From assembly GCF_041886205.1 (NCBI RefSeq), contig NZ_CP169029.1: a stretch of DNA of 64,000 nucleotides, one strand, 5' to 3'. A program made the position numbers. Positions 28,001 through 34,000 of this stretch are shown piece by piece. Origin of the DNA: Escherichia coli. GTDB taxonomy: Bacteria > Pseudomonadota > Gammaproteobacteria > Enterobacterales > Enterobacteriaceae. How positions within the stretch are numbered: the first letter of the stretch is position 1; each line of letters opens with the position of its first letter.

Positions 28001-31000
28001 TACAGAAACAATCCTGTTATGTAAAATCTGGAAAAAATGTCAGAAATGTGATTGAAGTTGTATTTTTCGGAGGGGAAATGGAAAACAAACATCCGTATGG
28101 TAAAAAGGATGCTTCCTGCGGAGTAACAATCCGGGACACAACGCAAGTTCCAGTTCTGGTGTTGTGAATTTGAGTAAAAATAATCGTAACTCTCCGGAGA
28201 ACCGGAGCTTTCCCGAAGCGGCGTATTCTTATAAATGGAAATCCCTGCAGGTAATCACTCTGCCCGATAGCTGCATAATTTGCCTGTTAATCCTCATCCC
28301 CGGAGGCAAGCTCTGAAAACCACTCAGGGTGTTCACTGTATGCCACATTCAGCGCATCCCAGGAGACGTCCACATAAAAACTGTCCCACAATTTGCGGGT
28401 AACCACCTCTGCCAGTCGGTTCCTGTTATCCGCCTGTCCGGCATAACCTCTCTCTGCCAGCCACTCATTCAGTTCATGTTCCAGAGACAGATTGATAAAA
28501 TCGTAATCGGACCTTGCCATTCCCGTTTCCTTTGCACATTTTTTCAGACACGGGAATAAAGTATAAAAAGCGGCACTCTGCCCCTGTCAAGGTGAAATCT
28601 GCCCTTCATCGCAATGTCAGAGATGGTATGCCGGTATTTTGCGGGTTGTTCCCGTCAGGTTATCGCTCGCTTCCACGGACGTTGTCACCACCGGCATTCC
28701 GCTCTTTCTCAGTCTCAGGATATCAGCCGCAATGCGCTGACTACCAGACCAGAACAGCCCGTCCAGTGCAGTCACCAGTAAACCGGCTTCCAGCGCATAC
28801 TTCAGCCGTTCACGGGGCACTTTCACTTCCCGGGCAATCTGCTGATATGGCAATGATGTGTTTTCATTCCCAACCACCCGGCGAATACGATGAGACAGAT
28901 GATACCGGTATGTATCTGGCACACCCGAAAGGCTGGCCTTCAGGCTGTACACGCAGCCAAAACGTTTATCGTTGAACACCACATTTTTCTGGCTGATGCC
29001 CCATTCTTCACGCAGCGCGGCAATCAGTTGTGGTGTACGGGTAAGCAACAAGCGAAAAGGCAGTTCAAAACTGGTGACGTAATCCACATTCAGCAGGGCA
29101 ATACGCAGCCGTTCTTCTGGCCCGGCCTCTGTCTGCCGGCACTCCTCCAGAACATCCAGCCACTGCCGGCGAAGACGGGAGGATTCATTCAGCTCTGTAA
29201 AACAGTATTTATCCGCCAGATAGTCAATTCGTGTACGCATACTGAAGAGAATTCCGTATAAAGATTCAGCTGGCAAAACTTTATCAGTCCATAAAAATCA
29301 ACGGAAACGCAGATGGTTCACACGTCCATTACCAACGGATTGTTGCCATAACAGTTAACATAAAGGACTGAACGACTGTTTTTAACAGCTGCACTGCATT
29401 ATCTCATTATCCATCACCACCATACCCACCAGATAAAACAACGGACGGACTCCCCATAACAGAACATCATCAATATCACCAGCATGCCACTCAAAGTGTT
29501 GCTGCATCATGCTGCGCCGGCATGTTCTTCTCTTTTTTCCTGCGCATCGTATATCCCATTTTAAATGGGTGATGGCATATTCCACCACCGTTGGCTACTG
29601 CATACTATCGGGACGAAACTTCACACTTTCTGAACGGCACGACGGATCACCCCCACCCAGTATCCGACAGACTCCTCACTGCGTTCGTAAAAATCCTTCT
29701 TCCCTCCCAGCATTTCCACTAATTCCGGCGACATGTCCTGCAGATAACTCTGTAAATCATGACAGAGATCTTCCGGTGACTGCAACTCATAAACTGCACA
29801 CCACACATCGCCCTGCCTGATCTTAAGCCCCGGGTTAAGAATATACTGTCCGTGGTTCAGTCTCAGAAAAAGCTTTTTGCCATAAGGATTTTTGCTGTTA
29901 ACTTCATGCTGAAAAAGCTGGCCGCTGATATAACTTCTTCGTTTGCGACGTTCCGGCAGCAACGCTTCAGGAAGGTGGGCCACACACTCTGCCAGTCGTG
30001 CTGCACTGAATGCTTCTGAAAAAGCCAGTGCATTCCCCAGATGCGTGTGGAACAGTGCCTGCATCAGGCTCACCAGAAACATTGCCATCTGCCGGTTGTC
30101 CAGTTTGATGAGCCGTCCTTCCACCTGCAGTGAGAGACTTTCAGGTTTCAGCAGGGTATACAACTGCGCACTTTTCTGTTGCGCATAACGGGGTGTACTG
30201 ACCGCCGCTGACAAAACATGATGATAAGCCGCCAGCCCGTCATTACCCGTCAGCGAGGGATCTGCGCCACGATCAAGCAGTAGCTGAACCAGTGCGATGT
30301 TACCTGCCCGGGCTGCTGACATCAGCAGAGTAAGATTAAACGGCGAACGGTGATCAACTCCATAACGTTCAATATCCCGCAACACAGCAACCGGGTTATT
30401 CATTGAGTATGACCGGAAATACTTCTGCTCCAGCAACTGCAGAGTCTTCGTCCTGGGCTGCCTTGTGGGCTTAAAATCTTCCCGGTACAGCGCATTATAC
30501 AACGGGCACAGGGAATAAATCAGACTGTACTCCAGCGCCTGCAGTTGTGTGGTTTTATCGGCTGTACCTGCGAGGATCTGTTCTTTCCACTGCCGGGCCT
30601 CCTCTGCGGTGATTACCGACCATGGCACCTCAGATGTCTGCAGGATCCGGCTGCGGATGGTATCCGCCTGCTCCTGCTTCCCCTGTTTCTCAAGCAGATG
30701 CGCAGTTTTCTGCCACTCGTCACGGCTGGAAACCTCTTCCTGCAGATTCAGTTGCTCTTCCTGATGTGTGAGCGCAAGCAGACACCACAACGGGTGCGCC
30801 ACCTGCTGTTCAACAAGATACACGTTGTGTGTGGCACGGGTGAACGCAACATACAGCGCGTTGATAAAAAACTTATAGATTTCTGCTGAACGATCCTGCC
30901 TGTCCCGCGGACGGGAATAACGGGCCTCGCCCTCAAGGTCTGCCGGAGAGATTCCCCCGCAGATATCATCAAATGCCTGCCGGGCACCGCTGACCATGTT

Positions 31001-34000
31001 GTAGAGGATCACCGTTTCGTATTCCAGCCCCTTCACTTCCTGAACCGAAAAGACCAGCGGTGTACTGAACCAGCACCGTGCCTGTGCTTTCTGTTCCGGA
31101 TGCATCACAATAACCGCCACCCGATTCAAACGTGAGGTTTTGGTGTTCAGTTCCTGTTTTGTCTCTTCCCTGTCTTCCAGTAACATGACAGCGCCTTCCG
31201 TCTGACCACAGCTTCTGACGAAATGGTGGCTTTCCCGATCAATGGCACTGAACCGGGCCTGTCTGAGCCTCAACAGACGGTTAGCCAGTGCGGTGATATG
31301 GTGCCCGTTACGGTAATTTGCCTGCAGGATATTAATGGGTGCGTCGTTCCCCTGTTGCTGCCGGAAAAAGAGACTTTTGAGCGAACTCCATGAGAAAAAG
31401 CTGAGGTGTACAATCTGACTGGCATCACCACAAAGCAAAAACTGACCAGGATGACGTAACGTTTTCAGTACCAGTTGCAACTGAACAGGCGTCATATCCT
31501 GAACTTCATCGACGAAAATAGCATCGTAACGGGGCTCTGCCAGCGGCAGATACTGATGGCTGAGCAGATTACTGTCATACTGATTCGACTGTTTCAGCCA
31601 TACCGTATAACGTTCAAACAGGGCATAGACCGTCGGGCGGTCATCCATGCTGTAGAGCGACTGCCGTACCCCCAGCGACAGATACGCCTCCCGGGACAGC
31701 GGTCCGTTGCCGGAAGCGGCCGCACCAATCACGCCCCTGAACTCCTCATACAGGGTATGGGCAGATCCCAGTGCAGCGATGCTCCGGTTGCGGGGCAACC
31801 AGTCGCTGAACGCACTGAAGGTCACCTCCCGGCCTTCCGGAATACGCAGGGTTTCCAGGAATTCCGTCAGTGACAGAAAGTCAATATTCTGCACATCACT
31901 CCCTTCCCCCGACGCGTTATAAAGCGTTCGCGCTTTTTCCACCAGAAATGAGGACAGGCTGAGATACAGTATATCACCAGCAACCTGCTTCATTTTTTCC
32001 AGTACCAGCGCCGTCTTACCACTCCCCGCAGAGCCGACAATCACCAGCGGTAGCGGGTGTTCGTACAGCGCCTGCTGCTCATCATCAAAGGACAACATTT
32101 TATCCAGACGATGGAAACGCCCGTGAGACGGATTAATGTACGTCAGCGTTTCCGTCGCTATATCAACAGGCTCTGGTACAGGTTGTTGTTGTAAGCGGTC
32201 TTCATCAATCACCACGTTTTTGCGAAGAAAACGTGAAGTGTGATAGGCATGATTGCGAATATATTCCAGTACAAGGCAGACTGTTTCCCCCTAGTAGCGA
32301 TACAGCGAAAACAGTAACCGGGACCGGATACTGAGCCGGGCGCGATAAAGATTGGTGTCAATTTTACGAACATCAGCCTGAACGAAGTTATCGGCCTCAA
32401 TGGCCTGTGCAAATTTTTTATAGCCCGGGATCGCTTCCGGGTTCAGGGTATGGTAGAGACAGATTTTCATGGCTGTCAGTTCCTGTCGTGCAAAAAACGT
32501 ACTGATTCTACGAAGGAACGGCCCACGCAACAACCTTGTCCCCTTCCTGAATTGAATTCACGGTCAAAAAACGCACGCTGTTCAGTTATCGACACCGATA
32601 ACACAACCCCTGATTGTTGTGGATATAACCGGTAATATCAAAGATATCGCGGCTGTTTTTAAGGCAACGTATTGCTCTGGTGTATCACCCCGGGTAACCT
32701 GAAAACACCTTTCCACCCGGCATTATCCGCCCGGACTTATCACCCGCCAGGTCTGCTGCAGTAAATCCCCCCGTTGTGAACATGCTTCATCAACTGTGAC
32801 ACTGGCTCGCGGGTGACAAATACTCGTCTGGCTGAGCAGCAACAGGCATCGAATTGTTGCTCCTCCATGCTGTTCCCGCAACCAGCGTAACACCACCGGC
32901 GATGATGGACTGGTCGTGTGATTACGCTCAGTAATACGTTCATGCACCTGTCGATAAAAGGAAGTACAGAATGCATGAATCTGTTGCCCATTGATGTTTC
33001 CTTCTGCCGAATGGAGCGTGAAATGAAATGCCAGCAGACGCGGCCAGTGGTCCACCGCCTGCTGAACAAAACGCCGGATTTCCCCCGGCTCTGAAAGTAA
33101 GGCTTCGGTTATTTGCACTATTTTATCCTTGTGAATTTTGTTAAGCCGGTGCAGACACACGGAAAGCGAACATCAACACCGGCACGGTACAATACAAACA
33201 CCAGCGACTGGCGGGACGAAGGGAATGACGAATCAGTCAGGAAATGATGACAACCAGTTGGCTGACCAGAGGAGTTAGCAGAAAGATGAGCGGGAGTGTC
33301 GCCAGCATCGGGGACAGGGCTGATTTCCGCAATACCAGCGCCGGCATTGCAACACGTTTCATGCTGCTGCTCCTCGTGATTCCTCAATTCGTTGTTGCAT
33401 CCACTGCTCCACTTCACTTTTGTACCAGCGGCTGCTGCGCCCCAGTTTGATGGGTTTAGGAAAATGCCCTTCACTGATCAGCCTGTAAAACCATTTATCG
33501 GTCATGCCGGTGAAACTGGTGATGTAGTTCATGTCGATCAGGGGATCGTCGGCACGCAGCAATACGCTGTCGTGGCTTGTTGTGGTCAACATGGTCAGAA
33601 TGTCCTCAGTGAGATTTATTAAGAATGGGGTAATACGGGGAATGGGATGGCGTGCTGCTTTCAGCACTGCCAACCGGGATTGCCGACAAGGCAACGGGCT
33701 TCCGGATCGCACACTCCACGGCGATCGCGGGCGAAATCACTGAACGCCCAGATAAGGTCCTTAAACAGGGCTTCGCAGTCCGGTGACCGGCGATCCAGTA
33801 CCACATCCCGTGTTATCTGTTTCTGGTACGGTGCCGCTTCACCCGGTGACGCGAAGCCCAGTACGTTGCTCCAGGCATCCAGAATCAACCTGTCCAGTTC
33901 AGGGCCGTCGAAATACTCCTGTCTGACGCACAGCACCACGTGGTATTCCGGCTTTTCCGGATGACGGGTCAGGAGCCAGCAGAGATCACGTCCGGGGGTT

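Follow-up and report, generated by a model that had tools for sequence, protein, structure and literature searches.

The stretch of DNA considered here is a 64,000-nucleotide (nt) window of an Escherichia coli chromosome (assembly GCF_041886205.1, contig NZ_CP169029.1), to which all coordinates refer. Its minus strand carries a single gene of 949 codons interrupted by an amber mutation at codon 60, and this copy is itself an ordinary, recently inactivated pseudogene, inherited by a small E. coli lineage and now decaying. The intact gene encodes one protein of ~950 amino acids (aa) in which a domain predicted to adopt the RelE/YoeB/HigB toxin fold precedes a superfamily 1A (SF1A) motor and a helical/ankyrin and C-terminal region. 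By motif and fold, the family consists of SF1A helicase and ankyrin-repeat proteins that resemble RelE/ParE toxins in predicted fold only. The explanation we retain overall, with slightly better than even confidence, is that of a dead single gene whose intact three-module product would be a self-contained conflict or defense factor equipped with a toxin-fold effector. The features of the locus are the following, PGAP designating the Prokaryotic Genome Annotation Pipeline and pLDDT the predicted local distance difference test score.

29621..32470, minus strand: whole pseudogene, 949 codons plus stop, delimited by translation, by the PGAP extent and by the family consensus start MxILLY
32468-32470, minus strand: true start codon ATG; the upstream TTG at 32533 lacks conservation as a start
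32231..32470, minus strand: N-terminal domain, codons 1-80, predicted RelE/YoeB/HigB fold made of a strand, a helix, then four strands
32291..32293, minus strand: amber codon 60, TAG here and CAG/CAC in relatives by codon comparison
30791..32095, minus strand: SF1A helicase core, codons 126-560, with the full motif set
32012-32035, minus strand: Walker A motif, GSAGSGKT
31403..31405, minus strand: codon 356, Pro-to-Leu change found only in the window allele, affecting a conserved proline beside motif III
30146..30733, minus strand: helical region ending in ankyrin repeats, codons 580-775
30326..30328, minus strand: codon 715, Pro-to-Leu change found only in the window allele, affecting a conserved proline of the ankyrin repeat
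30218-30349, minus strand: sequence-detectable ankyrin repeat (Pfam), codons 708-751
29624..30145, minus strand: C-terminal strand/helix domain, codons 776-949, with the invariant LPxxxLPxRRKRxxYIS; AlphaFold2 pLDDT ~90

Two open reading frames (ORFs) of 80 aa (32291..32533) and 864 aa (29621..32215) lie in one frame and are separated solely by the TAG at 32291-32293, after which 25 codons follow without a stop. A first-pass annotation of this DNA had described that arrangement, which translation confirms, and proposed either a 949-codon ORF inactivated by a nonsense mutation or a small upstream gene plus a helicase gene. The alignment of homologues that it called for decides in favor of the former: relatives do not start near position ~32098 but carry the N-terminal 85 residues within a single ORF and read as one protein. 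Codon 60 reads CAG (Gln) in the sequence type 131 (ST131) strain EC958, and two plasmids, the Shigella-type pINV and C5 of E. coli, have CAC (His) there. Because these homologues are fused and have CAG or CAC at codon 60, the locus is a nonsense pseudogene and not two genes, and codon comparison indicates that the TAG was made by a single C-to-T change (CAG to TAG). The window stretch is 100% identical to that of E. coli GXU-23-25-310, where the same span of 2850 nt is marked by RefSeq/PGAP as a pseudogene with the description 'DEAD/DEAH box helicase; internal stop'. A Rfam scan of the 27.5-36.5 kb portion of the window returned no match, and promoter and terminator scans performed no better than chance.

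The exact 61-nt context of the TAG is present in four of 5,426 complete E. coli genomes, of canine (UK), human (China), human (Taiwan) and buffalo milk (China) origin, and PGAP flags the copy as 'internal stop' or 'frameshifted' in all four. Since this context recurs in four independent complete genomes, the TAG is not an assembly artifact. Three of the four strains have in common a 4-nt deletion at codons 230-231 and the P880L substitution, one of them carrying an additional second 4-nt deletion. The window allele is devoid of both the codon 230-231 deletion and P880L, and its private C-to-T changes, P356L and P715L, affect prolines that at least 95% of family members share. Distinct lesions in each sublineage imply that the TAG came first and was followed by independent decay. 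The amber codon is located in the hairpin between strands 4 and 5, the last two of the predicted N-terminal fold, so that the truncated product of 59 residues lacks the last strand together with H74 and Y76; because it ends inside the toxin-fold domain, the system is off in the window strain. Just upstream, a Gp2-like gene of 178 codons (32582-33118, minus strand) contains a CAA-to-TAA nonsense mutation at 32723-32725 that is private to the window/GXU strain; EC958 and the three remaining TAG strains have an intact copy of this gene. The two adjacent genes are thus both C-to-T nonsense pseudogenes.

Two other accounts of the stop codon were rejected. According to the first, two functional genes would coexist, a RelE-like gene ending at the TAG and an 864-aa helicase gene starting from GTG 32215 or ATG 32098; the 80-aa and 864-aa ORFs do exist mechanically, and the truncated product has an identical counterpart in UniProt, an E. 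coli entry of 59 aa. This is nevertheless very improbable, given that every homologue is fused, that the stop occurs in just those four genomes with further lesions in all of them, that it removes the last strand of the fold plus H74/Y76, and that on direct reading a Shine-Dalgarno-like sequence is not evident before the internal starts. Readthrough of the amber codon by a suppressor tRNA or a programmed mechanism, which would still yield the full-length protein and has nothing in its favor beyond the stop being in frame, deserves the least credit of all, because relatives have a sense codon at this position, relaxed selection is apparent from the secondary frameshifts and from the leucines that replace prolines at conserved sites, and the single tRNA call in the window is a tRNA-Ser(GCT). 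This ARAGORN call (57864-57948, minus strand) is probably a false positive, since RefSeq mapping places it inside the nanC coding sequence.

Intact orthologues of 949 aa are encoded by EC958 (WP_000686652.1, 91.6% protein identity to the window copy) and by pINV (WP_010921718.1/CP0234). A database search with the protein gave more than 4,400 matches at E<=0.001, generic UvrD-type helicases included, and nearly all of the 120 best of these matches are ~950 aa long with 94-100% query coverage. Relatives with 43-53% identity are found in at least 560 species-representative genomes. The first-pass annotation had considered the architecture uncommon, which these figures contradict at the level of the family. 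Carriers belong mostly to the Gammaproteobacteria and also to the Alpha-, Beta- and Zetaproteobacteria, Desulfovibrionales, Leptospiraceae, Chloroflexi and Deinococcota, while structure-database matches add Bacteroidota, Chlorobi, Thermus and Campylobacterota. When E. coli and Shigella alleles are compared, the ratio of nonsynonymous to synonymous substitution rates is 0.12-0.20 overall, which shows that the intact gene is under purifying selection, and 0.12-0.13 in the first 85 codons, from which it follows that the N-terminal 'extension' evolves as coding sequence. In what follows, the family alignment comprises 70 sequences, conservation counts refer to 79 species-level loci and neighbor clustering to 78 loci.

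The central and C-terminal parts of the protein largely conform to the helicase and ankyrin assignment of the first-pass annotation. The window protein displays the helicase motifs GSAGSGKT, DEVQD, GDASQ, NYRN, QEVKGLEY and VAFTRA, all of them invariant in the family alignment, and two RecA-like domains with the UvrD/Rep/PcrA topology. Pfam recognizes this region only partially (PF00580, i-E 4.6e-4 over 44 residues; UvrD_C_2, 2.9e-3). By motif and fold, the motor is an SF1A UvrD/Rep/PcrA-like ATPase with a putative unwinding activity. The ankyrin region forms a stack of several helix-turn-helix repeats; profile search does detect them, with Pfam matches at residues 708-751 (Ank_5, E=3.1e-5; Ank, 6.8e-4; Ank_3, 1.9e-3) and ankyrin sequence matches in the PDB reaching 2.8e-8. 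The C-terminal 175 aa have no Pfam match and were assigned to no family. A profile of this domain weakly matches an engrailed homeodomain construct (E=3e-4, residues ~805-858, window ~29897-30058); we regard this match near RRKR..YIS as fortuitous, perhaps an effect of basic composition, although it may hint at a nucleic-acid-binding helix bundle. The full-length AlphaFold2 model computed from the family alignment has a pLDDT of 86 and a predicted template modeling score of 0.86.

The possible N-terminal extension with its in-frame amber codon, signaled in the first-pass annotation, proved real, and the present analysis adds what had been missed: its first 80 residues are predicted to form a RelE/YoeB/HigB toxin-fold domain. 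A Foldseek search against AFDB50 retrieved members of the family as well as two N-terminal fragments named 'RelE/ParE family toxin' in UniProt, and RelE, YoeB and HigB score above ParE as matches. The domain carries a conserved polar set composed of D/E33, K36, R43, R/K45, R51, E69, H74, Y76 and S79. Residues K36, R51, E69, H74, Y76 and S79 are invariant in 79/79 loci, position 45 is Arg or Lys in 79/79 and position 33 Asp or Glu in 77/79; the whole set except S79, R43 included, falls within 77-79/79. A profile of the domain reaches 579 representatives of 1.84 billion, and the matches listed are all proteins of ~900-1400 aa or N-terminal fragments of the same architecture.

Comparison with known systems delineates the family on several sides. 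It shows only 15-18% identity to UvrD/Rep/PcrA and HelD; with respect to UvrD/Rep/PcrA, its core is compact (~435 aa) and is completed by the N-terminal RelE-fold domain and a helical/ankyrin/C-terminal extension of ~390 aa, and its gene is accessory and patchy rather than a core repair gene. Its likeness to the type II toxins RelE, YoeB, HigB and YafQ lies in predicted fold only, with no detectable sequence homology; in contrast to the RelE/ParE toxins, the domain is covalently fused to a helicase and, by neighbor clustering at 78 loci, has no adjacent antitoxin gene. Among conflict systems, CnuH has a UPF1-like SF1B core and belongs to a multi-gene operon of the McrBC type that also encodes coiled-coil nucleases, whereas the protein described here is an SF1A, stand-alone enzyme with ankyrin repeats. 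The two are alike in placing a RelE-like fold before an SF1 helicase in a predicted conflict system: in CoCoNuT type II/III-A, a RelE/colicin-D-fold 'RTL' domain N-terminal to the SF1 helicase was recognized by structure prediction only (PMC11090510). In Gabija (GajB), Hachiman (HamB/AbpB) and Nhi, the helicase is paired or fused with a DNA nuclease (GajA of the OLD family, HamA and the Nhi nuclease domain, respectively), but the present family has neither nuclease partner nor nuclease domain, and PADLOC matches span only part of its core, the best GajB match (3.3e-12) covering residues 280-455 only. No GajA-like neighbor was found in the window and no conserved neighbor across the 78 loci. 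The absence of partner genes and the SF1A core make the family neither Gabija nor CoCoNuT. Cami1, a CARF-RelE fusion, is a CRISPR ancillary ribosome-dependent RNase whose CARF sensor has cyclic oligoadenylate as its ligand and is dependent on type III CRISPR; the family has an ATPase motor and ankyrin repeats instead.

The gene stands alone as an accessory gene, lacks any conserved partner, and has been disseminated by horizontal transfer on plasmids and integrative islands. It occurs in 115 of the 5,426 complete E. coli genomes and on 165 plasmids, 126 of them from Shigella, and the pINV copy CP0234 adjoins shf-capU-virK. In enterobacteria it follows a module of Gp2/YfjJ, hypothetical, AlpA-type helix-turn-helix (HTH) and Gp2-like genes found in CP4-57-type islands, which agrees with the AlpA/Gp2 cargo position assigned to it in the first-pass annotation. 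The K-12 CP4-57 region carries Hachiman/AbpAB (PMC11914072). A partner gene was sought by neighbor clustering and none was common to more than six loci, the apparent top cluster being the helicase itself picked up twice; the ten genomic contexts inspected were all different. A tblastn search of 50,697 phage records gave no match to the helicase family. The clearest defense-island context among the loci inspected is that of Piscirickettsia salmonis plasmid pPSA1-3, where a 38%-identical homologue (5995-8694) is flanked by DruA, MazEF and RelE-HTH genes on one side and by a pair of SIR2 and ATP-binding genes on the other. The Nitrococcus copy is located in a stretch rich in toxin-antitoxin genes. 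In a few gammaproteobacterial metagenome-assembled genomes (loci L037, L043, L054 and L056; also L032 and L033), the homologue is followed by proteins of ~909 aa and ~360 aa, the latter SWIM-zinc-finger-like by eye; this association, not seen in the other loci, is possibly lineage-specific.

A scheme can be proposed on these grounds. The toxin-fold head would act as an effector kept inactive inside its own chain; recognition of invader-derived nucleic acid or protein would fall to the ATP-driven motor and the ankyrin/C-terminal part, and would set the head free. Control in cis is what one would infer from a toxin-fold head that has a conserved polar site yet lacks an antitoxin gene, and the lack of such a gene would be explained because the head is held inactive in the same chain. 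In CapRel(SJ46), an N-terminal toxin domain is auto-inhibited by a C-terminal portion of the chain that itself recognizes a phage product; the proposed logic is alike, but the folds are unrelated and the comparison is an analogy only. The intact ST131 and Shigella-plasmid copies are plausible phage-defense candidates. We give even chances to the intact protein being a self-contained conflict or defense factor. That the head is a translation-linked RNase effector like RelE, YoeB or HigB is a tentative proposal, to which we grant clearly less than an even chance. The complete scheme, according to which the intact family would constitute a novel kind of single-protein device for immunity or abortive infection, its divergent RelE-type ribosome-dependent RNase being silenced in cis until the motor and ankyrin/C-terminal sensor detect an invader and unleash it, is more doubtful still.

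A number of observations weigh against the functional proposal. The RelE assignment is one of predicted structure only: Pfam gives no match to the N-terminal domain even at E<=10, a PDB profile search yields no toxin match and only a spurious BurrH repeat match, and hhalign against YoeB alone or a four-sequence YoeB alignment fails (probability 0.2%). The conserved residues appear to fall where YoeB has E46/R65/H83/Y84 according to a manual, secondary-structure-anchored alignment, not a computed superposition. PADLOC, NCBIfam and PHROGs provide generic helicase matches only, with no system or family-specific model. A literature search by domain combination, by accession, and through the DefensePredictor paper and its supplements found no description of the family and no experiment on it. 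Many contexts, those in Halomonas, Roseospira and Endozoicomonas among them, show no defense genes, and the frequent pseudogenization in E. coli is compatible with either toxicity or simple dispensability.

Of the competing functions, the best placed is that of a non-catalytic RelE-fold head serving for docking or nucleic-acid binding, or being ParE-like, in which case the helicase would be the effector, displacing proteins or unwinding invader DNA. We consider it unlikely, though worth retaining, in view of the higher scores of RelE, YoeB and HigB over ParE and of an acidic/basic/His/Tyr set that is typical of the RNase members and conserved across the 79 loci. Rather unlikely as well is a housekeeping role on nucleic acid or the ribosome, for instance that of a recycling motor that resembles HelD and clears stalled complexes by docking its RelE-fold head in the ribosomal A site, the E. 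coli copy being simply dispensable. Against it stand the patchy distribution in E. coli, with the gene in 115 of 5,426 genomes, its location on islands, plasmids and insertion sequence-flanked sites, the frequency of pseudogenes, and a uniform identity across distant phyla that suggests horizontal transfer. An ankyrin-bearing effector aimed at eukaryotic host cells, an idea favored by the 126 Shigella virulence plasmids carrying the gene, beside shf-capU-virK, and by the presence of symbionts and pathogens such as Endozoicomonas and Piscirickettsia among the matches, is very unlikely, since carriers are mostly free-living (Chromatiales, Methylococcales, Thiothrix, Nitrococcus, Nitrosomonas) and a 950-aa ATP-dependent motor is atypical of a secreted effector.

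Several other features of the window surround the pseudogene, beginning with the two ORFs downstream of it.

28287-29276, minus strand: ECs1377-family gene of 219 aa (NCBIfam NF052300, PHROG 24243) and 77-aa ORF

The first-pass annotation had tentatively included both in the helicase unit, but they are unrelated cargo: the pair is present in 2,283 of the 5,426 E. coli genomes, in up to five copies each, as compared with 115 for the helicase gene, and is absent beside the latter in EC958, pINV and plasmid C5. Some ECs1377-family copies are annotated 'DNA-binding protein'. The cargo region is directly flanked by a cdiBA contact-dependent inhibition locus (16361-27919, minus strand), whose CdiA of 3,259 aa is annotated as a tRNA nuclease effector. 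The G+C content drops to 0.35-0.42 across 35000-38000, around a 376-aa hypothetical ORF (36729-37859, minus strand; WP_001107216.1), which points to DNA inserted into the island in a separate acquisition. A cluster of defense-type genes (~45689-55500), known from the RefSeq record of the identical strain, lies some 13 kb away from the pseudogene; it comprises an hsdRMS type I restriction-modification system, DUF4942, DUF6088 with an AbiEii/AbiGii toxin, the remnant of a phosphorothioate-dependent restriction system, and an HNH endonuclease.

For the window itself, the practical outcome is a corrected annotation, that of a single decaying pseudogene instead of a helicase gene and a small gene. 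Beyond it lies a large, strongly conserved, mobile and stand-alone family of at least 560 species for which we found no name, family model or study, and whose N-terminus is predicted to be a translation-toxin fold with an invariant polar site. Should the proposed function be true, the pandemic ST131 lineage of E. coli and virtually every Shigella virulence plasmid would carry functional copies of an immune device. Fusions of toxin or nuclease domains with helicases recur in bacterial immunity, and the combination of a RelE fold, an SF1A motor and ankyrin repeats operating without an antitoxin would add a new wiring to this repertoire.

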